NCBI GenBank assembly: GCA_021421665.1
Contig: GCA_021421665.1_4698.1
Strand: one strand, 5' to 3'
Source: a phage
Length of the DNA stretch: 32,908 nt
The position numbers were made by a program, and so were the translations under genes. The notes under the pieces were generated by a model. The model ran no database searches, was not told the DNA's origin, and saw only the letters and a program-made list of their open reading frames with translations. Positions 5,661-26,896 of the stretch are shown piece after piece. Position 1 is the first letter of the stretch. Each line of letters begins with the position of its first letter.

Positions 5661-5676
5661 GTCTCACACGTGAGAC
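5661..5676 (+). other. hairpin gtctca-CACG-tgagac (family member)
   Basis: 6-bp stem with tetraloop seen directly; no T-tract follows; lies between a gene end and the promoter at 5692. Confidence 0.3.
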
Positions 5677-5691
5677 AAATAGGTGTCCGGT

Positions 5692-5714
5692 ATTTACTGG
5701 ACACTATAGAAGAG
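5692..5714 (+). promoter_or_regulatory. SP6-type phage RNAP promoter ATTTACTGGACACTATAGAAGAG
   Basis: 21 of 23 match to the canonical SP6 promoter; predicted +1 G at 5709. Confidence 0.8.
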
Positions 5715-5764
5715 AAGAATTTTAATCGGCGATAATGCCACAACCAACAAAAGGAGAATTTAAT

Positions 5765-6130
5765 ATGTTCAAGATTGAAACTATCGTAAACCGTGTTGTT
5801 AAAGGTGCTGCTCTGGTATCCGTTGAGTCTTTCATTATCGTCGATGAAGCCGACCAACTGGTAGCTGGTACTAAGGCTTATGATACTCGTGAAGAAGCTC
5901 AGGCTAAAATTGACAGCATGGGTAACTTCGCTGCTGGTCTGGAGTTTGCTCGTGCTTGTTTCCCTGAGCAGGCTGACAAAGCTCAGATTGGTAAGGCTAA
6001 CATCGTAGCTGAGTATCTGGATTGGATTGCTGCTGGTAAACCCGTGAAAGAAGCTAAGGCTGAAGAAGCTGAAGTAGTAGAAGACGTAGCTGCACCGGAA
6101 GTACCGGTAAGCGAAGAAGAAGAGTTTTAA
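5765..6130 (+). CDS. hypothetical protein (121 aa) with acidic C-terminal tail ending in Phe
   Basis: AAGGAG SD 8 nt before ATG 5765 (ORF-track start 5735 lacks an SD); C-terminus ...PEVPVSEEEEF; own promoter upstream and terminator-like hairpin downstream. Confidence 0.6.
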   Translation: MFKIETIVNRVVKGAALVSVESFIIVDEADQLVAGTKAYDTREEAQAKIDSMGNFAAGLEFARACFPEQADKAQIGKANIVAEYLDWIAAGKPVKEAKAEEAEVVEDVAAPEVPVSEEEEF

Positions 6131-6136
6131 TTGATG

Positions 6137-6168
6137 CCCTGTCTGCCTTAGTGTAGGCAGGGTCTTTT
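6137..6168 (+). terminator. terminator-like hairpin (ccctgtctgc / gtaggcaggg) followed by TCTTTT
   Basis: 10-bp stem with two G-U pairs, then a T-tract; same sequence family as the hairpin at 15316. Confidence 0.5.
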
Positions 6169-6194
6169 GCGTAATAGTTATTGGAGAATGAATT

Positions 6195-6500
6195 ATGCCG
6201 ACTATTGGATCTCGTTTAGTAGCAGACTATGTTTATGGTTGTGACTTAAAGCTGGGACAAGATTATTTTAAAGTAATCGTCTTGCTGGATGGAGAAGTGT
6301 TTCACACTAAAACATTCACCCTACCTGAGTTATTTGATTTAGGTTATTGGGGTTATACTTATCAGGCCATAGCAGACAAGGTGCTACTCAGTGTATTAGA
6401 GGAGTGGCCTACATGCGACCAAACTTCGACTTCGGAGCTACAGTATCGGAAGACAATAATCTCATCCTGTGGCCGACTGAAGGTAATCGAATCGCTTTAG
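6195..6500 (+). CDS. hypothetical protein (101 aa)
   Basis: GGAGA SD before ATG 6195; its 3' end overlaps the exonuclease start by 88 nt, so its true extent is uncertain. Confidence 0.4.
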   Translation: MPTIGSRLVADYVYGCDLKLGQDYFKVIVLLDGEVFHTKTFTLPELFDLGYWGYTYQAIADKVLLSVLEEWPTCDQTSTSELQYRKTIISSCGRLKVIESL

Positions 6501-7441
6501 TAGATGCTGATATGTTGCCTTATATCGTAGGGTATACAATCAGTGACATGACTTATGTACGAGCCACAACTCGTGTTAAGTCAGGGCAAGTCCCATCAAT
6601 CAAAGATACACCTGAGTGTAAGCAAGCGTGTGACCGTGTGAACTCCCTGCTTAACTCTTGGGTGTATGCAGCAGAGTGTGATGCTGCTAAGTTATTCATG
6701 ACGAAATCCGAAGCTAACTTCCGTGTTCGCCTAGCATTCACCAAGCCTTATAAGGGTCAACGTAAGACCGAGAAGCCTCCATTCTTCTATGAATTGCGAG
6801 AGCATCTCTTAGAGGTTCACGGTGCAATCTTGGCAGATGGAGAAGAGGCTGATGACCTTATGAGCATCGCACAATGGGACAGCCACCGACGCTTCCAGCA
6901 AGATACAGGTAACGAGTTTCCTATCGGTAGTCCAGAGCATAAAACATTCTCTGATACTTGCATCGTTTCCTTAGATAAGGATTTGATGATTGTTCCCGGT
7001 TGGCATCTTCAGCCGGGTCAAGAGAAGAAGTGGGTAGAGCCTATGGGTTGGCTTGAGCTACGCCGTAAGGCTAATGGTCAAGTCAAAGACCTAAAAGGTG
7101 CTGGCCTCATGTTCCATTATGCACAGATGATTATTGGTGATGATATCGATAACTACTCTGGCATACCGGGTCGTGGCGCTAAGTATGCCTATGATCTTCT
7201 CAAAGGATGTAAGACAGAGAAAGATTTGTACATGGCAGTTCTTGGTGCTTACAAGGCTAAGTTTGGACATGGACAAGTTAAGATTAAGAATTACCGAGGT
7301 GGTTATCGTATCGGCAAAGCCTTTGACTTGATGCTTGAATGTGGTCGCCTAGCTCACATGGCAAGATTCAAAGGTGATATATGGCGAGCCGATAAGAACC
7401 CAATCTTGTGGGGAGATGATGCGGAATGGTTAGCAAATTAA
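6413..7441 (+). CDS. 5'-3' exonuclease (T7 gp6-like, FEN family)
   Basis: GAGGAG SD before ATG 6413; blocks IALVDADMLPY, SLDKDLMIVP and IIGDDIDNYSGIPGRG resemble recalled T7 gp6 blocks ILVMDGDWL, SCDKDFKTIP and IKGDITDGYSGIAGWG. Confidence 0.8.
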   Translation: MRPNFDFGATVSEDNNLILWPTEGNRIALVDADMLPYIVGYTISDMTYVRATTRVKSGQVPSIKDTPECKQACDRVNSLLNSWVYAAECDAAKLFMTKSEANFRVRLAFTKPYKGQRKTEKPPFFYELREHLLEVHGAILADGEEADDLMSIAQWDSHRRFQQDTGNEFPIGSPEHKTFSDTCIVSLDKDLMIVPGWHLQPGQEKKWVEPMGWLELRRKANGQVKDLKGAGLMFHYAQMIIGDDIDNYSGIPGRGAKYAYDLLKGCKTEKDLYMAVLGAYKAKFGHGQVKIKNYRGGYRIGKAFDLMLECGRLAHMARFKGDIWRADKNPILWGDDAEWLAN

Positions 7442-7836
7442 AAGCATCGGAGGTGGCAGCTTATAAGAAGGAATTGCTAGATAAGCAAGGATGGAAGTGC
7501 CCTCTGTGCGGTGGCAGTCTAAAGGCTGTCGCCCCTAAAAACCGTGTACTTGATCATGATCATGAGACAGGCTTCTGCCGCGCTGTTGTATGCCGAGGCT
7601 GCAATGGTGCAGAAGGCCATATTAAGGGTGTTATCTCTGGTTATGGTAAGGCAGGTAACAGCCGTTATTTCCAGCTTCAATGGCTAGAGCGGCTATACGA
7701 ATACTGGAAGTTACATAGTACGCCTCAGACTGATAAGTTATATCACAAACATCAAACGGAGGCAGAGAAGCGCGAGGCTAAGAACCGTAAGGCACGCCTT
7801 GCTTATGCAAGAAAGAAGGAGGTTAAAGTTGGGTAA
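7426..7836 (+). CDS. endonuclease VII-like Holliday-junction resolvase
   Basis: CPLCGG...LDHDHETGFCRAVVCRGCNGAEG matches the T4 gp49 signature C-x2-C...DHDHE...G-x-C-x2-CN-x-AEG. Confidence 0.8.
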   Translation: MVSKLKASEVAAYKKELLDKQGWKCPLCGGSLKAVAPKNRVLDHDHETGFCRAVVCRGCNGAEGHIKGVISGYGKAGNSRYFQLQWLERLYEYWKLHSTPQTDKLYHKHQTEAEKREAKNRKARLAYARKKEVKVG

Positions 7837-8836
7837 GCTTCGCAGCTTGTACAAAGACTCCGAGGTACTTGATGCAATCGAGCAAGCTACCGACGAGAAA
7901 GGTAATGTTAATTATAAGGAGATGGCACGGGTGCTATCGTGTCATCCTGTGGGTAAGAAGATTACCCGCCAGTTGGCTCGATACTGGCACGGTCAATTCA
8001 AGAAGACCAAGAAGAATGGTGGTTATTACCAGACCCTTCTGCAAGAAGATAAGCGTATCAAAGAAGAGCGTAGGCTCAGGACTCCTGACCGCTACGAGGA
8101 TTTGGCTATTGTACCACTGCCTGACTCGCCTCATCGAAGTGTACTGGTAATCCCTGATACCCATGCGCCTTATGAGCATCCAGATACTTTAGAGTTCCTT
8201 GCAGCCGTGGCAGCACGTTATCGCCCAGACACAGTGGTACATCTTGGGGATGAGGCAGACAAACATGCCTTGTCATTCCACGACTCTGACCCCAATCTGG
8301 ATAGTGCTGGAGTGGAGTTAGAGAAGGCTCGTGTATTCATGCACAAATTGCACAAGATGTTTCCTGTGATGCGCCTGTGTCATTCTAACCACGGCTCTAT
8401 GCACTTCCGCAAGGCAAGCGCTAAGGGCATCCCTGTGCAATATCTACGTACCTATCGTGAGGTCTTCTTCCCGAATGGAGGTGGCGATCAGTGGGATTGG
8501 CAGCATACGCATGTACTTGAGTTGCCGAATGGCGAACAGGTAGCGTTCAAGCATCAACCTGCTGGCGTTGTCCTAGCAGATGCAGCGCATGAGCGTATGA
8601 ATCTTGTGTGTGGTCATCTGCATGGTAAGATGTCTGTGGAGTATGCACGTAATACTCATGAGCAGTATTGGGCTGTGCAGGGTGGCTGTCTGATTGATGA
8701 GTCGTCTCGTGCATTTGCCTATGGTCGTGAGTCTAAGTACAAGCCAGCATTAGGCTGTGTGGTTATTCTGGAGGGTGTACCACACATTGTCCCGATGCAG
8801 ACCAATAGCGACAATCGCTGGGTTGGTAAGATTTAG
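7829..8836 (+). CDS. calcineurin-like metallophosphoesterase
   Basis: Motifs VIPDTHAP (D-x-H), HLGDEAD (GD), SNHG (GNH-like) and CGHLHG; start placed at TTG 7829 after AGGAGG, with in-frame ATG 7805 as alternative. Confidence 0.7.
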   Translation: MGKLRSLYKDSEVLDAIEQATDEKGNVNYKEMARVLSCHPVGKKITRQLARYWHGQFKKTKKNGGYYQTLLQEDKRIKEERRLRTPDRYEDLAIVPLPDSPHRSVLVIPDTHAPYEHPDTLEFLAAVAARYRPDTVVHLGDEADKHALSFHDSDPNLDSAGVELEKARVFMHKLHKMFPVMRLCHSNHGSMHFRKASAKGIPVQYLRTYREVFFPNGGGDQWDWQHTHVLELPNGEQVAFKHQPAGVVLADAAHERMNLVCGHLHGKMSVEYARNTHEQYWAVQGGCLIDESSRAFAYGRESKYKPALGCVVILEGVPHIVPMQTNSDNRWVGKI

Positions 8837-8853
8837 TTGACACTATAGAACAA
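8831..8853 (+). promoter_or_regulatory. SP6-type phage RNAP promoter ATTTAGTTGACACTATAGAACAA
   Basis: Overlaps the stop codon of the preceding gene; predicted +1 G at 8848; a hairpin (aagggta...taccctt) follows within the first 30 nt of the transcript. Confidence 0.75.
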
Positions 8854-8903
8854 AGGGTAGGTGCTAGCTTACCCTTGATTGTATAGTGAATGGAGGAATT
8901 AAT

Positions 8904-9443
8904 ATGTCACACTATGTATGTAAGAAATGCCATAATCGCTATGATAATTGCACCTGTGATTATAGTAAAGGTGAAAGAATTAAAGCAGGTGATTATGTTA
9001 TACGACGTGCTGGCTGCCGCACTTTAGAGTGGAATAAGGTATGTAACCAATTAGGAAAGAAAGGGGATGCAACATTCAAAGTTACAAAGGATGAGCCTGT
9101 CAGCAGCGCTATTATGCTTGAAGGTATCGAAAATAGAGAATGGTATGCACCTTATTTCGAGCGAGTAGCTGCTCCCCAAGTTGTATCTGAGTCCAACATG
9201 TTGGAAAACAATATGGTTACTCAGCCTAAGCACTACGAGTTCTTCGAAGGTGTAGAAGCAATCACTATCATTGCCCGTAGTATGACCGAGAAGCAATTCG
9301 CTGGCTATTGCATGGGTAACGCCTTGAAGTACCGCCTGCGTGCAGGTAAGAAGTTCAACACTGAAGAAGACCTGAAGAAAGCAGATTACTACAAAGAGTT
9401 ATTCCAGAAGCATCGTCACGAATGTATTGATGAGGACATTTGA
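8904..9443 (+). CDS. T7 gp1.7-like protein (nucleotide kinase family) with N-terminal Cys cluster
   Basis: C-terminal block ARSMTEKQFAGYCMGNALKYRLRAGKK...KADYYKELFQKH resembles recalled T7 gp1.7 (ARSMTVEQFKGYCFGNILKYRLRAGKK...KADFYKELFEKH); N-terminal CKKCHNRYDNCTC; GGAGG SD. Confidence 0.6.
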   Translation: MSHYVCKKCHNRYDNCTCDYSKGERIKAGDYVIRRAGCRTLEWNKVCNQLGKKGDATFKVTKDEPVSSAIMLEGIENREWYAPYFERVAAPQVVSESNMLENNMVTQPKHYEFFEGVEAITIIARSMTEKQFAGYCMGNALKYRLRAGKKFNTEEDLKKADYYKELFQKHRHECIDEDI

Positions 9444-9444
9444 T

Positions 9445-9618
9445 ATGGAAGGTAAATTGTATCGAGGTTATTTCGGAAATCTATATAAGGTTAGCAGTAG
9501 AGGCTTTGTGTTGGCTTCCAATGATGAAGGTGCAACGTGGTATTTAAGTGCTTACGGTTCTAACTTAGCATACTTTAAAGCTGCAATATACAAAGGTGTT
9601 ATGAAGGAGGTTGGATGA
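9445..9618 (+). CDS. hypothetical protein (57 aa)
   Basis: ATG 9445 just after the upstream stop, GAGGA 8 nt upstream; stop overlaps the ligase start. Confidence 0.4.
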   Translation: MEGKLYRGYFGNLYKVSSRGFVLASNDEGATWYLSAYGSNLAYFKAAIYKGVMKEVG

Positions 9619-10562
9619 ACATCTTCCAATTCTTAGGTCTTCCAGAAGACCACCGCAATCACCCCTTCATGCTGGTGAAGCATCGCGGTGAAGTACCTGA
9701 GAAGAAACTTACTTTTCCATGTTATGCACAGGTGAAACGTGATGGAATATTTAGTGCTGTTGTGGTACGTAATGATGGTGCTGTTGCCATCTTTGGTCGT
9801 ACTGGTAAGAAGCTCGCAAATGTTGAAGACTTGGAAAAGTTATTTAGTGTATTTCCTGTCGGGTTGTATCTTGGTGAGTTGCAATCTATGGCTGTTGATA
9901 TATATCTTGAAGCTCTATCAGGGGTAGTAAATCCCAATCGCACTGAGCCACTCGATTTCATAGGCCAGCAGATTAAAGACAACCTGTATATCGACTTCTT
10001 CGATATGTTAACTATTAAGGCATTCCATGATGGATTCACTGATGTTTCTTATCTCAAACGTTACGATGCTTTACATCGTCGCATCGGCGCTCATCTTAGC
10101 GGGAACAACGCTATCCTCCCTATTACTCCTTGCCATAATGAGCGAGAAGTTGAAGCGTTTGCACAAGAGCAAATAGATGCAGGCCGAGAAGGTGCTGTGT
10201 TTAAACTGGACTGCGACTATGAAGCAGGTCACAAAGGTTATCGTCAGACTAAAGAAGTCCGTAAGGTAACTTATGACCTTACTTGTATTGGCTTTGAAGA
10301 AGGTAAAGGTAAGTACAAGGGTAAGGTAGCTAACCTCATTTTCAAATGGAAAGGAGGCAAGACAATCAAAGCTATGTTAGGTAAAGGGTGGACTCATGCA
10401 GATGCAGAACAGATGTTCCACGATATTAAACATGGCGGACGATTGAATGTCATTGGTAAAATCTTTGAAGTAAAAGGTCTTCAGGATTCAAGCAAGGGCA
10501 ACATTCGTCTGCCCAAAGCGGGAGAATTAAGACATGACAAAGATGAACCAGATTTCTTTTGA
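9615..10562 (+). CDS. ATP-dependent DNA ligase (T7 gp1.3-like)
   Basis: Adenylation motif KxDG present (AQVKRDGIF); AAGGAGG SD before ATG 9615. Confidence 0.88.
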   Translation: MNIFQFLGLPEDHRNHPFMLVKHRGEVPEKKLTFPCYAQVKRDGIFSAVVVRNDGAVAIFGRTGKKLANVEDLEKLFSVFPVGLYLGELQSMAVDIYLEALSGVVNPNRTEPLDFIGQQIKDNLYIDFFDMLTIKAFHDGFTDVSYLKRYDALHRRIGAHLSGNNAILPITPCHNEREVEAFAQEQIDAGREGAVFKLDCDYEAGHKGYRQTKEVRKVTYDLTCIGFEEGKGKYKGKVANLIFKWKGGKTIKAMLGKGWTHADAEQMFHDIKHGGRLNVIGKIFEVKGLQDSSKGNIRLPKAGELRHDKDEPDFF

Positions 10563-10749
10563 TAACATGAAGGCAACTCGTGCAGTTGAGGTGGCAGAAG
10601 CTATCTTCGAAACCTTATCCTGTGGCATGGAAGTGCCATATAACTTACTGGCTGATGCAGAAGAATTAGGTCTTTCTGTAGAAGCTATCCAAGAGAAAGT
10701 AGAGGAACTTTATGGTACAGATGAAGAAGAAACCGACGATTTCATTTGA
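10534..10749 (+). CDS. small acidic hypothetical protein (71 aa)
   Basis: ORF-track ORF with GGGAGA 8 nt upstream; acidic C-terminus ...DEEETDDFI; overlaps ligase end by 29 nt. Confidence 0.45.
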   Translation: MTKMNQISFDNMKATRAVEVAEAIFETLSCGMEVPYNLLADAEELGLSVEAIQEKVEELYGTDEEETDDFI

Positions 10750-10753
10750 AGGG

Positions 10754-10882
10754 ATGGAGATGCTTAAGAGGGTTCTCACTCCTTCCTCCCCTAAGCTAAC
10801 TAAGGCTCATGAAGAATTAATAGTTGATGAGGTGAAGCGTTACATCATGGAGTGTGTCAAGGCACAACTGGTGGTTCAATGA
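10754..10882 (+). CDS. small hypothetical protein (42 aa)
   Basis: Stop overlaps the start of the next gene in an ATGA arrangement (10879-10882); below ORF-track cutoff; weak SD. Confidence 0.3.
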   Translation: MEMLKRVLTPSSPKLTKAHEELIVDEVKRYIMECVKAQLVVQ

Positions 10883-11340
10883 TACGTCCCGCTTCCTTCC
10901 TAGATATTCCTGAGATTATAAACCTTGGGAATAAGTATGTGGAAGAGGAAGTCAAGGTAGTGGCTCATCACTCAGCCTCATGGAATGCAGAACAAAGCGC
11001 ACACAACCTTTGTGCATCTCTAAGTAGAGAAGATTTATTCCTGTGGGTGGCTGTTGATGAAGGGCAGATTGTAGGGTTCCTATGGGCTGGCTATCATGAG
11101 TTAGCCCCTTGGACACCTGTAAGAGTTGCCTCTGATATTCTCTTCTACATTGTACCAGAGAGGCGAGGGACACTGCTTGGTATGCGCCTTATCAAAGCAT
11201 TAAAGCAATGGGCCAGTGAAAGCAAGTGTGCCGAGGTTCGCCTGTCTATCGCCTCTGGTATTAATGAAGAACGTGTCGGACGTATGTATAAGCGACTTGG
11301 CTTTGAACCGTTTGGCACTGTGTATAACCTGAAGTTCTAA
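10879..11340 (+). CDS. GNAT-family N-acetyltransferase
   Basis: GNAT-like core QIVGFLWAGYHEL...ERRGTLLGMRLIKALKQWA...RMYKRLGFEPFG; start at ATG 10879 (ATGA-coupled) preferred over ORF-track start 10852. Confidence 0.65.
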   Translation: MIRPASFLDIPEIINLGNKYVEEEVKVVAHHSASWNAEQSAHNLCASLSREDLFLWVAVDEGQIVGFLWAGYHELAPWTPVRVASDILFYIVPERRGTLLGMRLIKALKQWASESKCAEVRLSIASGINEERVGRMYKRLGFEPFGTVYNLKF

Positions 11341-11349
11341 GGAGATAAC

Positions 11350-11556
11350 ATGGGTGTTGTAAAGAAAGCATTTAAGGCTGTAGGTCTTGCTCAAGATGCA
11401 CCACGTATTGAAGCTAAAGTACCAGCGCAGCAGCTTGAGCGTCAACCTGAAACTGAAGCAGAAGATATCCAGATTGGTGCAGGGGATGATGCCACTGCCT
11501 CTGCAAAAGGTAAGCGCGGACTTGTCCGTCCAGTGGCCTCTAGCCTGAAGGTGTAA
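11350..11556 (+). CDS. small basic virion protein (T7 gp6.7/gp7.3-like)
   Basis: AAGGAGA SD; MGVVKKAFKAV... with C-terminal GKRGLVRPVASS; sits directly before the portal gene as in T7. Homology recalled, not verified. Confidence 0.5.
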   Translation: MGVVKKAFKAVGLAQDAPRIEAKVPAQQLERQPETEAEDIQIGAGDDATASAKGKRGLVRPVASSLKV

Positions 11557-11557
11557 T

Positions 11558-13108
11558 ATGAAACAGAGCACAGATTTGGAGTATGGAGGTAAGCGGTCTA
11601 AGATACCTAAGCTATGGGAGAAGTTCTCCAATAAACGTAGCTCTTTCCTTGATAGGGCAAAGCATTACTCCAAATTAACCTTGCCCTATCTGATGAATGA
11701 CAAAGGTGATAACGAGACTTCGCAGAATGGATGGCAGGGTGTAGGTGCTCAGGCAACTAATCATCTGGCCAACAAGCTAGCGCAAGTGCTATTCCCTGCG
11801 CAGCGTTCCTTCTTCCGTGTAGACTTAACTGCACAAGGTGAGAAGATTCTTAACCAGCGTGGCCTGAAGAAGACAGAACTAGCTACTATCTTTGCTCAAG
11901 TAGAAACACGGGCGATGAAAGAGTTAGAGCAACGTCAATTCCGTCCTGCTGTAGTAGAAGCATTCAAGCATCTTATTGTTGCTGGTAGCTGTATGCTATA
12001 CAAGCCGAGTAAGGGTGCAATCAGTGCTATCCCAATGCATCACTACGTAGTTAACCGTGACACCAATGGCGACCTGTTAGACATTATCTTACTGCAAGAG
12101 AAAGCCTTACGTACATTTGACCCAGCTACACGTGCTGTAGTGGAGGTAGGCTTGAAAGGTAAGAAGTGCAAGGAAGATGACAGCATTAAGCTGTACACAC
12201 ATGCTAAGTATCTTGGTGATGGCTTTTGGGAACTTAAGCAATCTGCTGATGATATTCCTGTAGGTAAGGTGAGTAAAATCAAATCAGAAAAGCTACCTTT
12301 CATTCCACTGACTTGGAAGCGAAGCTATGGTGAGAGTTGGGGTCGCCCTCTTGCAGAGGATTACTCCGGTGATTTGTTCGTTATCCAATTCCTATCTGAA
12401 GCAGTTGCCCGTGGTGCTGCACTGATGGCAGACATTAAGTACCTGATTCGTCCTGGTGCTCAGACTGATGTTGACCACTTTGTTAACTCTGGCACTGGTG
12501 AGGTTGTCACTGGTGTAGAAGAAGATATCCATATTGTACAGTTAGGTAAGTATGCAGACCTCACACCTATTAGCGCGGTCCTAGAGGTGTACACTCGCCG
12601 TATTGGTGTTGTCTTCATGATGGAGACAATGACACGCCGTGACGCCGAACGTGTTACTGCTGTAGAAATCCAGCGAGATGCGTTAGAGATTGAGCAGAAC
12701 ATGGGTGGTGTATATTCCCTCTTCGCTACTACTATGCAATCGCCAGTAGCGATGTGGGGTCTGCTGGAGGCAGGAGAGTCCTTCACTAGTGACCTAGTGG
12801 ACCCTGTGATTATCACAGGTATTGAAGCTTTAGGGCGCATGGCTGAGTTGGATAAACTGGCTAACTTCGCTCAGTATATGTCACTGCCATTACAATGGCC
12901 TGAGCCTGTCCTAGCTGCTGTGAAATGGCCTGACTATATGGATTGGGTGCGTGGTCAAATCTCTGCTGAACTGCCGTTCCTTAAATCTGCTGAAGAGATG
13001 GCACAAGAACAGGAAGCGCAGATGCAAGCACAGCAAGCACAGATGCTTGAAGAAGGTGTGGCTAAGGCTATACCGGGTGTAATTCAACAAGAACTTAAGG
13101 AGGCGTAA
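11558..13108 (+). CDS. portal (head-tail connector) protein, T7 gp8-like
   Basis: N-terminal block WQGVGAQATNHLANKLAQVLFP resembles recalled T7 gp8 WQAVGARGLNNLASKLMLALFP; 516 aa; position before scaffold and capsid. Confidence 0.9.
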   Translation: MKQSTDLEYGGKRSKIPKLWEKFSNKRSSFLDRAKHYSKLTLPYLMNDKGDNETSQNGWQGVGAQATNHLANKLAQVLFPAQRSFFRVDLTAQGEKILNQRGLKKTELATIFAQVETRAMKELEQRQFRPAVVEAFKHLIVAGSCMLYKPSKGAISAIPMHHYVVNRDTNGDLLDIILLQEKALRTFDPATRAVVEVGLKGKKCKEDDSIKLYTHAKYLGDGFWELKQSADDIPVGKVSKIKSEKLPFIPLTWKRSYGESWGRPLAEDYSGDLFVIQFLSEAVARGAALMADIKYLIRPGAQTDVDHFVNSGTGEVVTGVEEDIHIVQLGKYADLTPISAVLEVYTRRIGVVFMMETMTRRDAERVTAVEIQRDALEIEQNMGGVYSLFATTMQSPVAMWGLLEAGESFTSDLVDPVIITGIEALGRMAELDKLANFAQYMSLPLQWPEPVLAAVKWPDYMDWVRGQISAELPFLKSAEEMAQEQEAQMQAQQAQMLEEGVAKAIPGVIQQELKEA

Positions 13109-14028
13109 TGTCTTTCTCATTTACTGAACCAACAACCACTCACCCTACTGCTGAAGGTAGTTCGGTAGAAACCAAGGAGGTAACAACTGATGCTGCTACT
13201 ACTGATATTCCTGCTGACACTGGCACTGATGTACAAGATGACAATGCTAGTGCGCAACCTACTGAAGACACCAGAGGAGAAGATTCTGGACAGCCTTCAG
13301 AAGAAGGAGACAATGGCGGAGAGAATGGTGAATCTAAGCCAGATGATACCAAGACCGACGCTGAGGAAGTGCAATACTTCTTCGGAGAACATGAAGTAAC
13401 AGTAGACATCCCACAGGATGTGACTGATAGCCTTAAAGAGAAAGGTATTGATGCTAAACAGGTTGCCAAGGAACTCTATTCAAAAGATGGCAAGTTTGAG
13501 CTGTCAGATGCAACCAAGCAGAAACTGTATGATGCCTTTGGGAAATTTGCGGTAGATGCTTACCTGTCTGGTCTTAAGGCGCAGAACGAGGCATTCTTCC
13601 TGAAAGAAGCCAATGCAGCTAAAGAGTTGGAAGCAGCTAATACCCAGCGATTCTCTGATGTTTCTAAGGAAGTTGGTGGGGAAGAAGGCTGGTCCCGTCT
13701 TGAGTCTTGGGCACTTGAGGCGTTGTCCGATGACGAACTCACGGCCTTCAATGAGGTTATGGCATCTGGCAACCAGTATCTCCAGCAGTACGCTGTGCGC
13801 GAACTGGAGAGCCGCCGTAAGGCCGCACAAGGTGATGACAAGCCAAACCTGATTGAGCCAACTGCACCTGCTGCCGCAACGGAAGACAACGGCCCACTTT
13901 CTCGTGAGCAATACATCCGTGAGATGATGACTCTTAATTCCCGCTTTGGTAAAGATAAGAAGGCGGCAGCAGAATATCAGGCTAAGCTGGATGCACGTCG
14001 TCGTGCGGGTATGGCTCGCGGATTGTAA
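13108..14028 (+). CDS. scaffolding protein (T7 gp9-like)
   Basis: 306 aa, strongly acidic and low-complexity N-terminus; start overlaps the portal stop (taATG); between portal and capsid. Confidence 0.8.
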   Translation: MSFSFTEPTTTHPTAEGSSVETKEVTTDAATTDIPADTGTDVQDDNASAQPTEDTRGEDSGQPSEEGDNGGENGESKPDDTKTDAEEVQYFFGEHEVTVDIPQDVTDSLKEKGIDAKQVAKELYSKDGKFELSDATKQKLYDAFGKFAVDAYLSGLKAQNEAFFLKEANAAKELEAANTQRFSDVSKEVGGEEGWSRLESWALEALSDDELTAFNEVMASGNQYLQQYAVRELESRRKAAQGDDKPNLIEPTAPAAATEDNGPLSREQYIREMMTLNSRFGKDKKAAAEYQAKLDARRRAGMARGL

Positions 14029-14034
14029 TTCAGT

Positions 14035-14057
14035 ATTTACTGGACACTATAGAAGGG
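14035..14057 (+). promoter_or_regulatory. SP6-type phage RNAP promoter ATTTACTGGACACTATAGAAGGG upstream of the capsid gene
   Basis: Predicted +1 G at 14052; the transcript begins with hairpin gggaga-AATG-tctccc at 14055-14070. Confidence 0.8.
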
Positions 14058-14107
14058 AGAAATGTCTCCCTAAATTATCAATTTGATTTATAAGGAGATC
14101 ATAATAC

Positions 14108-15307
14108 ATGTCTACACCGAATACTCTAACTAACGTTGCTGTATCCGCATCCGGTGAGGTTGACAGCCTTCTTATTGAGAAGTTTAACGGCAAGGTTAAT
14201 GAGCAGTACATGAAAGGCGAGAACATTCTTTCCTATTTTGATGTACAGACTGTAACTGGTACAAACACGGTTAGCAATAAATACTTAGGTGAGACTGAAT
14301 TGCAGGTGTTAGCACCGGGTCAGTCTCCTAGTGCTACACCAACTCAGGCAGATAAAAACCAGTTGGTGATTGATACTACGGTTATTGCCCGTAACACTGT
14401 AGCTCATATCCATGATGTGCAGGGTGACATTGATAGCCTGAAACCTAAGCTGGCTATGAACCAAGCCAAACAACTGAAGCGACTGGAAGACCAGATGGCA
14501 ATCCAGCAGATGCTGTTAGGCGGTATCGCTAATACCAAAGCCACACGCACTAAGCCGCGTGTTAAAGGTCACGGTTTCTCTATCAACGTTAACATCACCG
14601 AGAGTGAAGCACTTTCTAACCCTCAGTATGTTATGGCAGCAGTGGAGTACGCTCTGGAACAACAGCTTGAGCAGGAAGTAGATATCTCTGATGTGGCTAT
14701 CCTGATGCCGTGGAAGTTCTTCAATGCGCTGCGTGATGCAGACCGTATTGTAGATAAGACTTACACCATTAGTCAGTCAGGCAGCACGGTACAAGGGTTT
14801 GTATTGTCTTCTTACAATTGCCCTGTTATCCCGTCTAACCGTTTCCCTTCTTTTGCAGGGAGTGCACCTCACCACCTGTTATCTAACGCAGATAACGGGT
14901 ATCGCTATGACCCGACAGCAGAAATGAATGGTGCAGTTGCTGTACTGTTTACAGCGGATGCACTGTTGGTTGGTCGCACCATTGATGTAACTGGTGATAT
15001 CTTCTATGAGAAGAAAGAGAAGACTTACTACATCGATACCTTTATGGCAGAAGGTGCGATCCCTGACCGCTGGGAGGCTGTGTCTGTGGTTACAACCAAA
15101 CGCAACGCCAGTGGTGTTGCTGAAGGTGCAGGCACTGACCACGCTATTGTCCTGTCTCGTGCACAGCGTAAGGCGGTTTATGTCAAGAGCGCTAACCCGG
15201 CAGGTGCTTACGCTGCCTCTAGCCTGCAAGCGGAAGACTTGGTTGCTGCTGTACGTGCTGTAATGGCAAATGACATTAAGCCGACTGCAATGAAACCTGC
15301 TGAGTAA
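14108..15307 (+). CDS. major capsid protein (T7 gp10-like)
   Basis: 399-aa ORF with AAGGAGA SD, own promoter and a terminator-like hairpin downstream; position after scaffold. Confidence 0.88.
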   Translation: MSTPNTLTNVAVSASGEVDSLLIEKFNGKVNEQYMKGENILSYFDVQTVTGTNTVSNKYLGETELQVLAPGQSPSATPTQADKNQLVIDTTVIARNTVAHIHDVQGDIDSLKPKLAMNQAKQLKRLEDQMAIQQMLLGGIANTKATRTKPRVKGHGFSINVNITESEALSNPQYVMAAVEYALEQQLEQEVDISDVAILMPWKFFNALRDADRIVDKTYTISQSGSTVQGFVLSSYNCPVIPSNRFPSFAGSAPHHLLSNADNGYRYDPTAEMNGAVAVLFTADALLVGRTIDVTGDIFYEKKEKTYYIDTFMAEGAIPDRWEAVSVVTTKRNASGVAEGAGTDHAIVLSRAQRKAVYVKSANPAGAYAASSLQAEDLVAAVRAVMANDIKPTAMKPAE

Positions 15308-15315
15308 TACCTATG

Positions 15316-15348
15316 CCCTATCTACCTTGCGTAGGTAGGGTTCTTTTT
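15316..15348 (+). terminator. terminator-like hairpin (ccctatctac / gtaggtaggg) followed by TTCTTTTT
   Basis: 10-bp stem with one G-U pair, then a T-tract; immediately after the capsid gene, the position T-phi occupies in T7. Confidence 0.6.
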
Positions 15349-15361
15349 GTTAGGAGGATTC

Positions 15362-16099
15362 ATGCCTGTAATTAGACAAACAAGTAAAGTAGGCAACCTG
15401 ATGGAGGGTGTTGCCTTCCAGATTATTGATAGTAAACTTGAAGCGGTCAACTTATGTATGCGAGCTATTGGTCGTGAGGGTGTGGATTCTCTCGACTCAG
15501 GGGATCTCGATGCAGAAGATGCAAGCAAGATGATTGATATCGTGTCCCAGCGATTCCAGTACAATAAAGGTGGTGGCTGGTGGTTCAACCGCGAACCTAA
15601 CTGGCAACTTGCACCAGACACCAACGGTGAGGTTAACCTTCCTAATAATTGCCTTGCTGTGTTGCAGTGTTATGCTTTAGGTGAGAAGAAAGTACCCATG
15701 ACTATGCGTGCAGGTAAGTTGTACTCTACTTGGAGTCACACATTTGATATGCGTAAGCACGTAAATGCTAATGGTATGCTTCGTCTTACCTTGCTTACCC
15801 TCCTGCCATATGAGCACTTACCTACGAGTGTGATGCAAGCAATTGCATACCAAGCTGCTGTGGAGTTTATTGTGTCTAAGGATGCAGATAAGACTAAACT
15901 TGTCACCGCACAACAGATTGCCTCTCAGCTTCTTATGGATGTACAATCTGAACAAATGTCACAGAAGAGATTGAACATGCTGGTGCATAACCCCACCCAA
16001 CGCCAGTTCGGTATCATGGCAGGTGGCTCTCAGAATGTACCTGCTTACTCACACTCTCCATATGATAGTTGGACCCTTCGTCCTTGGGAGGATCGTTAA
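15362..16099 (+). CDS. tail tubular protein A (T7 gp11-like)
   Basis: TAGGAGGA SD before ATG 15362 (ORF-track start 15347 rejected); 245 aa; position between capsid and gp12-like gene. Confidence 0.8.
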   Translation: MPVIRQTSKVGNLMEGVAFQIIDSKLEAVNLCMRAIGREGVDSLDSGDLDAEDASKMIDIVSQRFQYNKGGGWWFNREPNWQLAPDTNGEVNLPNNCLAVLQCYALGEKKVPMTMRAGKLYSTWSHTFDMRKHVNANGMLRLTLLTLLPYEHLPTSVMQAIAYQAAVEFIVSKDADKTKLVTAQQIASQLLMDVQSEQMSQKRLNMLVHNPTQRQFGIMAGGSQNVPAYSHSPYDSWTLRPWEDR

Positions 16100-18504
16100 T
16101 GGAAGTACAAGGTTCATTAGGTAGACAAATCCAAGGCATAAGCCAGCAACCTCCAGCAGTGCGCTTAGATGGTCAGTGTACGGCTATGGTCAACATGGTC
16201 CCTGACGTAGTGAACGGAACACAATCCCGCATGGGTACAACTCACATTGCAAAGGTACTTGATGCAGGCACTGATGATATGGCTACTCATCATTATCGCA
16301 GGGGTGATGGTGATGAGGAGTATTTCTTTACTTTAAAGAAAGGACAAGTACCTGAAATCTTCGATAAGTATGGGCGTAAATGTAATGTAGCTTCTCAAGA
16401 TGCACCTATGACATATCTCAATGAAGTGGTTAACCCAAGAGAAGATGTGCAGTTCATGACTATTGCAGATGTGACATTTATGCTTAATCGTCGAAAGGTA
16501 GTTCGCACAAGGGAAGATCGTTCCCCTAATGTAGGTGCTACAGCTTTAGTCTTTTGCGCTTATGGTCAATATGGTACTATATATCAAATCATTATTAACG
16601 GTGCGGTGGCAGCAGAATATCGCACTAAAGATGGGGGAAGTGCAGACCACGTAGAGACAATACGAACAGAGGTTATAGCAGAACAGTTGTTTGTTAAGCT
16701 ACAGCAATGGTCCGGTGTAAGTGCATATGATGTATATCGAATGGGGACCACTATCGTTATCACCAGTAAATCCGGTGATACAGAGTTCACAGTAAACACA
16801 GAGGATGGTGCTAAAGGAAAAGATTTAGTTGCCATTAAATACAAGGTTAGCTCCACTGATCTTTTACCCAGTAAAGCGCCGGAAGGTTATAAAGTACAAA
16901 TATGGCCCACTGGAAGTAAACCTGAATCACGTTACTGGCTACAAGCCGAGAAGTCAGAGGGAAACCTTGTTACATGGAAAGAGACTATAGCTGCCGATGT
17001 TAAACTTGGTTTTGATAAAGGAACCATGCCTTACATTATTGAACGCACAGGAATCATTGATGGTATTGCGCAGTTTAGGATTAGACAAGGCGATTGGGAG
17101 GACCGCAAGGTAGGCGATGACCTTACTAACCCCATGCCCTCCTTCATTGATGATGAAGTTCCTCAGAAAATTGGTGGTATGTTTATGGTACAGAACCGCT
17201 TGTGCTTTACGGCAGGTGAAGCAGTCATTGCATCTCGTACTTCTTACTTCTTTGATTTCTTCCGATATACGGTGATCTCTGCTCTGGCCACAGACCCTTT
17301 CGACATCTTCTCCGATGCAAGTGAGGTTTATCAATTAAAACATGCAGTAACTCTTGACGGAGCTACGGTATTGTTCTCTGATAAATCCCAGTTCATCTTG
17401 CCGGGAGATAAGTCACTAGAGAAGGCTAATGCTTTACTTAAACCAGTAACAACTTTTGAAGTAAACAATAAGGTTAAGCCTGTTGCCACTGGTGAATCTG
17501 TGATGTTCGCTGCAAGTGATGGTGCATACTCTGGTGTGCGAGAGTTCTATACTGATTCTTATAGTGACACTAAGAAGGCACAGGCAATCACTAGCCATGT
17601 GAATAAACTCATTGAAGGCAACATTATAGGCATGGAGTCTAGTACGAATGTGAATAGACTACTTGTTACGACGGATAAGCATCGTAATATAATCTACTGT
17701 TATGACTGGCTATGGCAGGGCACAGATCGTGTTCAATCGGCTTGGCATATATGGGAGTGGCCTTTGGGTACAAAGGTGCGAGGTATGTTTTATTCTGGTG
17801 AACTGCTTTATCTGCTTCTTGAGAGAGGCAATGGTGTATATCTGGAGAAGATGGACACTGGTGATGCACTTACCTACGGTTTAAGTGATCGTATTAGAAT
17901 GGATAGGCAGGCAGAGTTGGTCTTCAACTATTTCAAAGCAGAAGATGAATGGATCTCTGAACCACTACCTTGGACCCCCACCCACCCAGAATTGTTGGAT
18001 TGTATCCTAATAGAGGGCTGGAACCCATATGTTGGAGGCTCTTTCTTATTCAGGTATAATTCCAGTAATAACACACTGTCTACAACTTTTGATATGCATG
18101 ATGGTGATCACGTAAAAGCAAAGGTTATTGTTGGACAACTTTACCACCAAGAGTTTGAACCAACACCTGTGGTTATCAGGGACAATCAAGACCGCGTATC
18201 ATATATTGATGTGCCTGTTGTGGGGTTGGTTCACCTCAACCTTGATATGTATCCCGATTTCTTAGTGGAAGTTAAGAATGTGAAGAGTGGTAAAGTGCGC
18301 AGAGTATTAGCGTCTAACCGCATAGGTGGTGCTCTCAACAATACAGTAGGTTATGTTAAACCTAGGGAAGGTGTCTTCAAGTTCCCACTGAGAGTTAAGA
18401 GCACTGATGTTGTTTATCGTATTATTGTAGAGTCGCCTCACACATTCCAGCTTCGTGATATTGAATGGGAGGGGAGTTATAATCCAACCAAGAGGAGGGT
18501 CTAA
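16099..18504 (+). CDS. tail tubular protein B (T7 gp12-like)
   Basis: N-terminus MEVQGSLGRQIQGISQQPPAVRLDGQ resembles recalled T7 gp12 MALISQSIKNLKGGISQQPDILRYPDQ; 801 aa; start overlaps upstream stop. Confidence 0.9.
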   Translation: MEVQGSLGRQIQGISQQPPAVRLDGQCTAMVNMVPDVVNGTQSRMGTTHIAKVLDAGTDDMATHHYRRGDGDEEYFFTLKKGQVPEIFDKYGRKCNVASQDAPMTYLNEVVNPREDVQFMTIADVTFMLNRRKVVRTREDRSPNVGATALVFCAYGQYGTIYQIIINGAVAAEYRTKDGGSADHVETIRTEVIAEQLFVKLQQWSGVSAYDVYRMGTTIVITSKSGDTEFTVNTEDGAKGKDLVAIKYKVSSTDLLPSKAPEGYKVQIWPTGSKPESRYWLQAEKSEGNLVTWKETIAADVKLGFDKGTMPYIIERTGIIDGIAQFRIRQGDWEDRKVGDDLTNPMPSFIDDEVPQKIGGMFMVQNRLCFTAGEAVIASRTSYFFDFFRYTVISALATDPFDIFSDASEVYQLKHAVTLDGATVLFSDKSQFILPGDKSLEKANALLKPVTTFEVNNKVKPVATGESVMFAASDGAYSGVREFYTDSYSDTKKAQAITSHVNKLIEGNIIGMESSTNVNRLLVTTDKHRNIIYCYDWLWQGTDRVQSAWHIWEWPLGTKVRGMFYSGELLYLLLERGNGVYLEKMDTGDALTYGLSDRIRMDRQAELVFNYFKAEDEWISEPLPWTPTHPELLDCILIEGWNPYVGGSFLFRYNSSNNTLSTTFDMHDGDHVKAKVIVGQLYHQEFEPTPVVIRDNQDRVSYIDVPVVGLVHLNLDMYPDFLVEVKNVKSGKVRRVLASNRIGGALNNTVGYVKPREGVFKFPLRVKSTDVVYRIIVESPHTFQLRDIEWEGSYNPTKRRV

Positions 18505-19232
18505 TGGCTATAGGTTCAGCCGTTATGGCTGGTATGTCTTCTATTGGCAGTATGTTTGCAGGTAGTGGTGCAGCAGCCGCTGCTGGAGGGACTGCCGCAA
18601 CAGTAGGTGGCGGAGGTTTACTAGGTTCCGTGGGAGGTTTCCTAAGTGGTTCCACTGGTGGCTTCTCCAATGCAGGCTTGCTTAGTGCAGGTATGCAAGG
18701 TCTAGGGCTTATAGGTAACCTTTTTGGTGGAAGGGATGAAGCCAAAGCTATGAAGAGGGCTCAGGAGGAGCAATGGCGGCAGCAGTTAATTGCTACGCAG
18801 GAGGCATACAAAACAGTGGCAGATGCAGAACGCTCTGCTGCTAAACAGTACCATGCCGACGCAATAAGTAATCAGGCTTCTCTGCTACAGCAGCGAGCAC
18901 AGGTTGCATTGCTTGCTGGTGCTACTGGTACTGGTGGTAACTCTGTGTCTTCTATGCTAAACGACTTAGCAGCAGAAGGCGGCAGGAACCAGAGTACAAT
19001 TATTGATAACTATGAGAATCAGAAGATTAACTTCACTAATCAGCTTAAGTCTATTCAGCGTGGCGGACAGATGCAAATGCGTGAGTTTAAGAAGCCTTCT
19101 GCTGTAAGCACCTTGGTTCAAGGTATCCCGAGTCTGGCTTCTGCCTATGTAACAGGTAGTAAATCGGGTATGGCATTAGGTAAAGCATTAACTGATTCTC
19201 GTACCTATTCATCTGGAACAAGAGGTATTTAA
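18504..19232 (+). CDS. internal virion protein (gp14-like)
   Basis: 242 aa with Gly/Ala-rich N-terminus and Gln-rich helical region; translationally coupled within the structural block. Confidence 0.65.
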   Translation: MAIGSAVMAGMSSIGSMFAGSGAAAAAGGTAATVGGGGLLGSVGGFLSGSTGGFSNAGLLSAGMQGLGLIGNLFGGRDEAKAMKRAQEEQWRQQLIATQEAYKTVADAERSAAKQYHADAISNQASLLQQRAQVALLAGATGTGGNSVSSMLNDLAAEGGRNQSTIIDNYENQKINFTNQLKSIQRGGQMQMREFKKPSAVSTLVQGIPSLASAYVTGSKSGMALGKALTDSRTYSSGTRGI

Positions 19233-22180: not shown

Positions 22181-22194
22181 TACCTAACTCAAGG

Positions 22195-22222
22195 CTTGTC
22201 TCACATGTGAGACAGGTCTTTA
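22195..22222 (+). other. hairpin cttgtctcac-AT-gtgagacagg followed by TCTTTAT (family member)
   Basis: 9 to 10-bp stem seen directly; T-rich tract follows; between the two large internal virion protein genes. Confidence 0.4.
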
Positions 22223-22244
22223 TGATAGGCACTATGGAGGAACT

Positions 22245-25200: not shown

Positions 25201-25430
25201 TGCAATCCCGTTATGAGGCTGGCTTTCAGACTAAGGGTTTGATAGACCAAATACCATTAGTAGGTGTTGGTCAAGATGCATACCGTTTAGCAGATTCTAT
25301 AACTAAGTATGCAGAGGGTGATACAGATGGTGTAGATGTAGCACGTAGAGTTTTACGCTTAGTGCCACTGACTAATGTAATAGGTGTCCAAAACGCATTG
25401 CGTTATGGCTTAGATGAACTGGAGGACTGA
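22245..25430 (+). CDS. large internal virion / core protein (gp16-like)
   Basis: 1061 aa, largest gene of the block; GGAGG SD; Gly/Ala-rich segment suggests a membrane-interacting region; assignment by size and position. Confidence 0.75.
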   Translation: MEQDIKTNWAGYVQSTPEPFSIEAAPVSAPTIRQRNELQEQVLEAKADADILGAVGAAFQNEWLAFGGKRWYDRATADFPPQPDFEIQPDRREALRFKYGTDMMQKIIEGVRSEDELNFRIQNADDDLERNKRIAQAGWVGSVATIGAAVLDPVGWVASIPTGGAAKVGLVGRAVRGAVAAGVSNAAIESVLVQGDMTRDLDDIMVALGSGMAMGGVIGAVARGRATKLSEQGDDRAASVVRSADAGDRYVRAVADDSIGAMRVKGAEVLTEGAFDIPSKGEDLLKTLQREGNAIDMTPRRWAGTMSALGTVVHSSQDASIRGLGARLFESPQGLGMQKASASLMQNTNLNRLKSADMNRFNDGFDLWLKENNINPVAGHTNSHYIQQYNEKVWEAVRIGMDESTPKSIRMAAEGQQTMYREALALRQRSGEAGFEKVKADNKYMPDIFDSMKARSQFAMHDKEDIIELFSRAYQNGARKIPKEAADEIARAQVNRVADATLTGRLSFEKAMSGQTKAEYEAIMRKAGFSDEEIEKMVEALDNKETRDNISNRAKMSLGLDVTQEYNGIRMRDFMNTNVEELTDNYMKEAAGGAALARQGFSTYQAALNAIDLVERNARNAAKDSKASLALDEEIRQMREGIRLIMGKSIDADPQALSTKMMRRGRDITGVLRLGQMGFAQLGELANFMGEFGVAATTLALGKQFRFTSKALRNGDGFFRDKNLAEVERMVGYIGEDNWLTTKGARPDEFGDVTTVRGMMAHFDQSMNSIRRAQTNLSLFRMAQGSLERMTNRQIALSFIDHLEGKKVIPQKKLEELGLTQEFMSSLQKHYDANSKGSGLLGFDTMPYAMGETLANAIRRKSGLIIQRNFIGDEGIWMNKALGKTFAQLKSFSLVSGEKQFGRGIRHDKIGLAKKTAFGFALGSMVYAAKAYVNSIGREDQDEYLEEKLSPKGLAFGAMGMMSTTAVFSLGGDFLGGLGVLPSELVQSRYEAGFQTKGLIDQIPLVGVGQDAYRLADSITKYAEGDTDGVDVARRVLRLVPLTNVIGVQNALRYGLDELED

Positions 25431-26610: not shown

Positions 26611-26896
26611 ACATGCAGCTACAGAGGATGAGGTTGGCATTCTGCATGGTGCTATTACCAAAATCTTCAATAAGAAAGCACAGGCTATACTGGACACTAT
26701 AGAAGAAGACCCAGATGCAGCACTGCATTTAGTGTCTGGTAAAGACATTGGTGCTATGTGCAAATGGGTTCTTGATAATGGTATTACCGCTACACCTGCT
26801 GCACAGCAGGAAGAGTCCAAGTTGTCTAAGCGCCTCAAGGCTATCCGAGAGGCATCTAGTGGTAAGATTATTCAGTTTACAAAAGAGGACAATTAA
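26594..26896 (+). CDS. terminase small subunit (gp18-like)
   Basis: 100 aa, GTG start after GGAGGGAG, immediately upstream of the large terminase; positional assignment. Confidence 0.65.
   Translation: MSVHNKHAATEDEVGILHGAITKIFNKKAQAILDTIEEDPDAALHLVSGKDIGAMCKWVLDNGITATPAAQQEESKLSKRLKAIREASSGKIIQFTKEDN
26685..26707 (+). promoter_or_regulatory. intragenic SP6-promoter-like sequence CTATACTGGACACTATAGAAGAA
   Basis: Core CTGGACACTATAGAAGA is intact but the two upstream positions differ from all intergenic copies; lies inside the small terminase coding sequence. Confidence 0.35.

Follow-up and report, generated by a model that had tools for sequence, protein, structure and literature searches.

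Two related hairpins, probable class I terminators, behind the capsid gene and a small conserved gene of an SP6-like phage

Phage-polymerase terminators in SP6 and its relatives

The genome of phage SP6 was reportedly described by Scholl et al. 2004 and Dobbins et al. 2004. Its terminator t5 (CCTATGCCCTATCTACCTTGCGTAGGTAGGGTTCTTTT), which follows the major capsid gene and belongs to class I, stops SP6 RNA polymerase in vitro with an efficiency of 85.3 ± 2.2% and at a nearly single stop site, compared to just 16.2% termination for T7 polymerase at the same terminator (Song et al. 2024, PMC11347151). T7 has one phage-polymerase terminator by the count of these authors (PMC11347151), whereas SP6-like phages carry a second such terminator after a gene of the DNA-metabolism region. 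Putative terminators at orthologous sites, after the same two genes, are already annotated in Escherichia phage R4596 (MK373771.1, 14871-14896 and 23931-23955) and Proteus phage Premi (OR798392.1, 14353-14387 and 23083-23115), as software predictions only and in records that are silent on the two being one family. Paired terminators are therefore no novelty; they are an ordinary and already known feature, and all of this has been described earlier for SP6-like phages.

The DNA analysed here (a stretch of 32,908 nucleotides, contig GCA_021421665.1_4698.1, called the window in the following) is that of an SP6-like phage in the K1E/K1-5 group. It carries one hairpin after a small gene (S, plus strand, 6136..6163) and one after the capsid gene (C, plus strand, 15315..15341). 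C is the orthologue of SP6 t5, as 38 nt of t5 including the whole stem-loop are identical to window positions 15310-15347. Like t5 it is located between the capsid and tail tubular A genes and has the same U-rich tail, except that the run in the window is one T longer (T5 G vs T4 G in SP6). The first-pass annotation had taken C for a terminator in the position of T7 T-phi, and this is borne out by the experiment on the identical SP6 stem-loop. The efficiency of about 85% was measured on SP6 DNA with SP6 polymerase, whereas the cognate polymerase of the window phage is of the K1E/K1-5 type and its promoter (ATTTACTGGACAC) departs from the SP6 consensus (ATTTAGGTGACAC). S together with its whole spacer is identical to SP6 over 78 nt (window 6128-6205, from the stop codon), and when the first 25.5 kb of SP6 were scanned, it was located at 14733-14760. 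Because of this position, the sequence comparison suggests that the counterpart of S among the seven SP6 terminators t1-t7 is one of t1-t4. The terminator sequences of R4596 are nearly identical to those of the window as well. A literature search found no direct termination assay of the S equivalent in any phage, no termination data on the polymerase of the window phage and no transcriptome study of the SP6-like K1E/K1-5 group; phage vB_Eco_K1B4 turned out to be unrelated.

More distant systems share part of this architecture. The 'T-phi analogue' of Vibrio phage phiA318 (GCCCCTGCCtactttGGTAGGGGCTTATTTTT) adjoins the capsid gene and has the GCCC...GGGC base and the TTATTTT tail, but its stem interior differs from that of the window hairpins and no small-gene terminator was reported there (PMC4099482). 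C also resembles T-phi of T7 and T3 in lying after the capsid gene and before a tail tubular gene, in its hairpin and U-run ending in G, in having a 5' arm rich in C and a 3' arm rich in G that form G.U pairs, and in a partial efficiency with downstream genes depending on read-through. Unlike in the SP6-type hairpins, the stem of T-phi is longer and includes an internal loop, and only its base aligns with the SP6-type model (11 bits). We therefore rejected a common family and regard T-phi as an analogue, not as an alignable homologue.

Structure and conservation of the two hairpins

S consists of 11 pairs including three G.U and a loop of 6 (GCCCUGUCUGC/CUUAGU/GUAGGCAGGGU, -17.9 kcal/mol, z = -4.9) and was obtained by folding, terminator scan and covariance model; the U-tract CUUUUG follows directly (CTTTTG, plus strand, 6164..6169). 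C likewise has 11 pairs, with a loop of 5 (GCCCUAUCUAC/CUUGC/GUAGGUAGGGU, -16.0 kcal/mol, z = -4.9), and runs into UCUUUUUG (TCTTTTTG in the DNA, plus strand, 15342..15349), both U-tracts being evident from the sequence and the terminator scan. The hairpins begin 6 nt (S) and 8 nt (C) past the stop codons. They had initially been placed at 6137-6162 and 15316-15340, and both are present there as CCC...GGG cores that a closing G.U pair widens to the limits given above. The common form GCCCT(R)TCT(R)CC...GG(Y)AGGG proposed for them is correct for both, and the T-tract said to follow exists at both sites, albeit as a short one at S with four T's after TC. Between S and C one pair changes from G-C to A-U, which is compensatory, and another from G.U to A-U. 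The two hairpins are not a product of chance, because a degenerate pattern of the hairpin gave no match in 100 shuffles, S and C are the two best plus-strand matches of the terminator scan, and a covariance model finds them with 51.3 bits (E 1e-11) and 40.2 bits (E 1e-8), while every other site of the window stays at or below 9 bits.

The plus-strand RNA folds with -18.3 and -16.4 kcal/mol at the two sites vs -9.8 and -12.2 kcal/mol for the opposite strand, and the presence of G.U pairs shows that the element acts as RNA and not as DNA. An RNase III site or a DNA cruciform was rejected because of the short stems, their G.U pairs and the asymmetry between the strands. As sense-strand RNA both elements fold into a stable GC-rich hairpin, and they have a U-rich run directly 3' of the stem (shorter in S) and are intergenic on the same strand within a transcription unit of the phage polymerase, so they are very probably class I intrinsic terminators, built from hairpin and U-run, for an SP6-type single-subunit RNA polymerase. 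A class II signal had been suggested by the TCT in the 5' arms, which read TGTCTGCC and TATCTACC. It was rejected, since the plus strand of the whole window lacks the class II pause/termination motif, which is ATCTGTT in the non-template strand ahead of a U-rich stretch, and since other lineages do not keep the TCT. Across the whole window no Rfam family matched at its gathering score.

In 28 distinct homologous sequences, taken from both sites and from the two subfamilies Molineuxvirinae and Colwellvirinae, 99.3% of the cells pair and compensatory changes are found in 8 of the 11 base pairs, compared to just 38-62% pairing in controls in which one arm was shifted against the other. Among relatives the hairpins and tails are 89-97% identical vs 53-77% for the flanking coding sequence, with 97% conservation for the tail and spacer of S. 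Both sites were found in phages of Vibrio, Pseudomonas, Marinomonas, Aeromonas, Klebsiella, Erwinia and Proteus, and the U-rich tail has the consensus TT[A/C]TTTTG in all lineages. The covariance model built in this analysis, which combines the stem (AT)GCCC[T/C]...[A/G]GGG[C/T] with this tail, has exactly two matches in the window, which follow the gp20-like gene and the capsid gene. Two strong matches at the same two sites were also obtained for each of Premi, R4596 and Vc1, and Nerthus gave one strong match after the small gene and a weak one after the capsid gene (11.4 bits, E 5.5); as these sequences went into the model, the informative result is the absence of further matches, apart from an extra weak one in Vc1 (18.7 bits) behind the polymerase gene.

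Taken together, we put the probability that the two hairpins are genuine and conserved signals at which the phage's own RNA polymerase terminates at roughly 90%. For the hairpin after the small gene, prediction, conservation with covariation and existing annotation agree with the earlier assignment as a terminator. Here we infer both termination and its efficiency, and S may be a weak terminator because its U-tract is short (UCUUUUG).

A stable 3' stem-loop shields mRNA from 3' exonucleases. The hairpins could thus mainly be elements of 3'-end stability or processing, which raise the level of the upstream mRNA by blocking 3' exonucleases or mark endonuclease cuts without stopping the polymerase, and both indeed come after seemingly highly expressed genes. 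We consider such a role very unlikely as the main one, as the identical SP6 t5 stem-loop stops purified SP6 polymerase at 85% in a nuclease-free reaction, and as the conserved tail TT[A/C]TTTTG is required for termination but not for protection. From established knowledge, stems of 11 pairs should also be too short to serve as T7-type RNase III sites. A stabilizing effect does not conflict with termination and probably accompanies it.

Two cassettes and the genes behind them

The small gene (plus strand, 5765..6130) encodes 121 aa of unknown function and corresponds to gp20 of SP6 in AY288927, to gene 18 in AY370673 and to phrog_4429. It is preceded by a phage-polymerase promoter (GTATTTACTGGACACTATAGAAG, plus strand, 5690..5712, +1 inferred at 5709) that matches the K1E/K1-5-type SP6-like promoter core exactly and ties for the best score (37.6 bits) among the 8 promoters of the window, and by a Shine-Dalgarno sequence GGAG read from the sequence at 5753..5756 (plus strand), 8 nt before the ATG. 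The own promoter and strong Shine-Dalgarno sequence claimed for this gene are therefore both found. The major capsid protein gene (399 aa, plus strand, 14108..15307, Shine-Dalgarno AAGGAG at 14092-14097) has the same 23-nt promoter (plus strand, 14033..14055, +1 inferred at 14052), and in both cases it lies 75 nt upstream of the ATG. The small gene has the strongest codon bias of the 37 genes in the window, with a Fop of 0.737 compared to 0.575 for the capsid gene. Identical promoter and spacing, the joint-top promoter score and the highest Fop give indirect support to the earlier proposal that the small gene is expressed at a capsid-like level. Both codon bias and promoter identity reflect expression only indirectly. 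Among eight divergent genomes a phage promoter is found upstream of both genes in seven. Its distance to the start is up to about 80 nt in six of them, and in the seventh it is about 200 nt for one of the genes.

The promoter map also bears on the polymerase that is stopped. A hairpin with a U-run is a signal for bacterial polymerase as well, and programs that were trained on bacterial terminators (ARNold and TransTerm-type tools) pick up both hairpins, which might accordingly be rho-independent terminators for the host RNA polymerase that insulate the middle and late regions from host transcription. This is very improbable, as both are located directly downstream of phage-polymerase promoters, sigma-70-like sites are not above chance (28 found vs 32.7 expected), the hairpin sequences co-vary with the phage lineage rather than with the host, and SP6 polymerase is stopped efficiently at t5.

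Four genes follow S on the plus strand (6195..8836), annotated by transfer from SP6 as a phrog 'DNA repair protein', an exonuclease, an endonuclease VII and a 335-aa protein. They have a low Fop (0.39-0.42) and no promoter of their own, none being present between 5712 and 8829 and thus none for 2.7 kb after S. Behind C, genes for the tail tube, internal virion proteins and tail-fibre adaptor fill about 11 kb (plus strand, 15362..26404) without a strong promoter; the next one lies at 26683-26705, 11.3 kb after C, and the best candidate before it (22841) reaches 13.4 bits vs at least 30.8 bits for real promoters. Because no promoter lies within these 2.7 and 11.3 kb, the genes behind S and C depend on read-through. 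Genes just downstream of both terminators have a Fop of 0.39-0.44.

For termination by the phage polymerase we propose the following model. Each hairpin would close a short cassette that opens with a consensus phage promoter, continues with a leader of about 55 nt and a strong Shine-Dalgarno sequence, and holds a single gene ahead of the terminator, with the major capsid gene in one cassette and the small conserved gene in the other. The nascent RNA would fold into the 11-pair stem, the base of which is formed by three C-G pairs, and the stem directly before the U-rich stretch would dislodge the polymerase there. Termination would be partial, at about 85% if the value for the identical SP6 t5 stem-loop applies. 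As a rationale for gene dosage, each cassette gene would be transcribed into abundant monocistronic mRNA whose 3' end is protected, and a minority of read-through transcripts would feed the promoter-less genes behind each terminator, which encode nucleases in the case of S and low-copy proteins of the tail and the internal virion in the case of C.

Likeness of S and C within a genome

S and C of the same genome are nearer to each other (mean edit distance 0.27) than S and C of different genomes (0.39) or the same site in different genomes (0.40-0.43). In an exact permutation this gave p = 0.001 for 8 lineages and p = 0.008 without a near-identical Marinomonas pair, the two sites being near-identical in Marinomonas phage CPP1m. 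Any two GC-rich terminators might look alike by coincidence, since both need only a GC-rich stem base and a U-run, and T7 T-phi likewise has CCCC...GGGG and U6G. Such a coincidence is unlikely, as it accounts neither for the smaller distance within genomes than to the terminators of other lineages nor for the other annotated terminators in R4596 and Premi, which are unrelated in sequence.

The likeness within genomes exceeding that of the same site between genera, the near-identity in CPP1m and the termination at t5 of 85% vs 16% led us to a tentative and rather doubtful proposal, that the terminators of each genome are a co-evolving pair tuned to their own polymerase, in a lineage-specific termination code added to the general scheme of hairpin and U-run. 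In connection with this, the small gene, which has promoter and terminator type in common with the capsid gene, would encode a very abundant replication-associated factor. The small protein has an acidic tail ending in EEEEF, and distant homologues keep such a tail with an aromatic residue at or near its end. This tail would dock on DNA polymerase or SSB in the manner of the tails of T7 gp2.5 and gp4. The small protein gave no significant Pfam match, and PDB sequence searches were empty. Its AlphaFold model is mediocre (pLDDT 65 overall, about 83 for the first 50 residues); weak matches of this fold to DUF1508/YegP-like proteins (3bid at a probability of 0.35, DUF1508 proteins in BFVD at about 0.9 over roughly 55 residues) are a hint at such a fold and not an assignment.

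In summary, the result is mainly a sanity check, in which the raw sequence alone gave two functional terminators and a high-expression cassette, and for SP6-like phages it repeats the known transcription map. New but minor are the likeness of S and C within a genome and the conserved acidic tail of the small protein with its final aromatic residue. Terminator and polymerase seem to fit each other within a lineage, a point of use for the design of orthogonal phage-polymerase expression systems, where T7 T-phi is often reused uncritically. Furthermore, the small protein, deeply conserved and seemingly expressed like the capsid protein, is a sensible target for functional study.

Two related hairpins behind the small gene and the capsid gene

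By megablast and blastn we assigned the window to the SP6-like phages (Autographiviridae, Molineuxvirinae), with Vectrevirus (K1E/K1-5-like) genomes as its nearest relatives (94–96% identity) and SP6 at 79–87% identity. It extends from near the DNA polymerase gene through the structural genes. Two look-alike terminators had been proposed in the first-pass annotation, one behind a small gene (5765–6130, 121 aa) and one behind the major capsid gene (14108–15307). Both hairpins are indeed present, the coordinates assigned at that time being those of the CCC...GGG cores, which a closing G·U pair lengthens to 6136–6163 (hairpin S) and 15315–15341 (hairpin C), and their shared degenerate pattern never arose in shuffled sequence. 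As RNA each forms 11 pairs, with −17.9 kcal/mol for S and −16.0 kcal/mol for C (z about −4.9 for both), and none of the shuffles folds as well. Directly 3' of S follows CUUUUG and directly 3' of C UCUUUUUG, the U-tract of S being the shorter one. The opposite strand folds much worse (−9.8 and −12.2 kcal/mol) because the stems contain G·U pairs, which makes RNA of the sense strand the acting form. The window contains neither the class II signal ATCTGTT (+ strand) nor a match to any Rfam family.

The sequences that follow the small gene (site S) and the capsid gene (site C) were taken from IMG/VR contigs and from phages in GenBank with Escherichia, Salmonella, Citrobacter, Proteus, Erwinia, Klebsiella, Vibrio, Pseudomonas, Marinomonas and Aeromonas as hosts, and every genome with both regions recovered carries a hairpin and U-run at both sites. 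The consensus is (AT)GCCC[T/C]...[A/G]GGG[C/T] followed by TT[A/C]TTTTG. With 28 distinct sequences aligned, 99.3% of the cells pair and 8 of the 11 pairs show compensatory changes, versus 38–62% pairing when one arm was slid out of register as a control. Among Molineuxvirinae relatives the hairpins and tails are 89–97% identical to the window, whereas the adjacent coding sequence reaches 53–77%. A covariance model built from the hairpin alignment was run on the window and four complete genomes. It found exactly two matches in the window (51.3 and 40.2 bits) and two strong ones in three of the four genomes; Nerthus has one strong match, its capsid site being weak only, and Vibrio phage Vc1 has one extra weak match after the polymerase gene. 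The remaining annotated terminators of these genomes are unrelated in sequence to S and C.

In IMG/VR contig 3300045988_000861 a gene for a 145-aa HNH homing endonuclease (1178–1615) lies between the small gene and its terminator, with the terminator kept directly 3' of the insert, and several Vectrevirus genomes have an insert of about 57 nt at the same spot instead. A different hairpin family with the base GTCTCAC-N4-GTGAGAC, probably the ‘first terminator family’ of the first-pass annotation, occurs at 337–366, 5661–5676 and 22191–22221, one copy being immediately 5' of the small-gene promoter. These hairpins are often extended to GG(N)TTGTCTCAC...GTGAGACAGCC, with a short T-rich stretch behind; the R4596 record lists homologues as terminators (8643–8666), and Proteus phage Premi has three copies.

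Relation to the known terminators of SP6 and T7

The feature itself is already known for SP6-like phages. In the template of t5, a class I terminator of SP6, CCTATGCCCTATCTACCTTGCGTAGGTAGGGTTCTTTT precedes the start of the tail tubular gene (Song et al. 2024, PMC11347151, supplement); this stretch is identical to 15310–15347 and represents the SP6 orthologue of hairpin C. At t5 SP6 polymerase terminates with 85.3 ± 2.2% at a nearly single stop site and T7 polymerase with 16.2 ± 2.2%, and seven phage-polymerase terminators are listed for SP6 citing two genome papers (PMC11347151). In UAB_Phi78 terminators follow the polymerase gene, two genes of unknown function and the capsid gene, at positions as in SP6 (PMC4837284). 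For Escherichia phage R4596 and Proteus phage Premi, GenBank also lists putative terminators at both orthologous sites. The 78 nt from the small-gene stop codon, which run through hairpin S and its tail and across the spacer into the start of the next gene, are identical in the window and SP6. Termination at S and its efficiency are inferred.

T7 T-phi shares with the capsid terminator its position, a CCCC...GGGG base and a U-run ending in G, but its stem is longer and interrupted by an internal loop, and only the stem base matches the SP6-type model (11 bits). T-phi is thus an analogue by function and position rather than a member that can be aligned.

The two terminators of a genome resemble each other more than terminators do across lineages, with a mean normalised edit distance of 0.27, compared to 0.39 for the two sites between genomes and 0.40–0.43 for one and the same site across genera. 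The exact permutation p is 0.001 for 8 lineages and 0.008 without the Marinomonas phage, for a small sample uncorrected for phylogeny and base composition. In this phage, CPP1m, the terminators after the small gene (11820–11858) and the capsid gene (20829–20867) are the same but for a single base in the loop (AACCCCAGAGGCCA[G/T]TAGGCTTTTGGGGTTTCTTTTG); no other genome shows duplication or conversion between the sites as clearly. Together with the 85% versus 16% at t5, the likeness suggests that the terminators are either tuned to the cognate polymerase or subject to gene conversion between the sites. At a modest level it may be new.

The small protein and its acidic-tailed neighbour

The small protein belongs to phrog_4429 (function unknown) and was found in 213 phage records by tblastn, with a conserved gene order of 268-aa acidic-tailed protein, small gene, exonuclease and endonuclease VII. 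Its acidic C-terminal tail has an aromatic residue at or near the end in all 8 divergent homologues aligned (EEEEF, EEF, EDF, GQF, EAF, ETFE, DAAY), and this is kept across Escherichia, Vibrio, Pseudomonas and Marinomonas phages. In T7, gp2.5 and gp4 contact the DNA polymerase through their tails; the small-protein tail recalls these, which may serve as a lead. The structure prediction is mediocre, and weak fold matches to DUF1508-like proteins give a weak hint that roughly the first 55 residues may have a DUF1508/YegP-like fold. The 268-aa protein (4625–5431; phrog_862, function unknown) ends in ...PEMDEDAEY and could plausibly be an analogue of the single-stranded DNA-binding protein gp2.5 of T7; a sequence search of the PDB gave no matching chain.

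Promoter map and a proposed dosage step

Eight promoters for the phage polymerase, with the core GGACACTATAGAAG, lie in the window and stand cleanly apart from all other sites in a position weight matrix scan (at least 30.8 bits; next best site 13.4 bits). The two top scores belong to the small-gene promoter (5690–5712) and the capsid promoter (14033–14055), which share the same 23-mer GTATTTACTGGACACTATAGAAG and each lie 75 nt before the start codon. Both genes are preceded by a phage promoter in 7 of 8 divergent genomes, and within one genome the two promoters agree at 19–20 of 20 positions. The 13.4-bit site, a degenerate 23-mer TGATTTAGATGACATTATGGTAG at 22841–22863 inside a 1061-aa gene (22245–25430), could be an internal promoter, weak or decayed, within the long region without promoters 3' of the capsid terminator. 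Hairpins at or just past the predicted +1 follow the promoter 8829–8851 (AAAGGGTAGGTGCTAGCTTACCCTT, 8853–8877) and the capsid promoter (GGGAGAAATGTCTCCC, 14053–14069) and would form stem-loops at the 5' ends of the transcripts.

Each hairpin closes a one-gene cassette with its promoter upstream. The same scan of the window found no promoter between S and 8829, so four genes including exonuclease and endonuclease VII depend on read-through, and no strong promoter between C and 26683, so the same applies to ~11 kb of tail-tube, internal-virion and adaptor genes. Scoring codon bias as Fop with E. coli optimal codons, the small gene is the highest among 37 genes (0.737; Ala GCT 20/22, Gly GGT 6/6, Arg CGT 3/3, Leu CTG 4/4), with 0.58 for the 268-aa protein (third-highest), 0.575 for the capsid gene and 0.39–0.44 for the genes directly behind each terminator. 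The first-pass observation is thereby confirmed and its interpretation supported, indirectly in the case of capsid-like expression of the small gene. Because cassette layout, promoter map and codon bias fit, we suggest that S and C are partial terminators setting a dosage step, with abundant monocistronic mRNA upstream of each and a trickle of read-through downstream, which would be the same logic as that of T7 T-phi.
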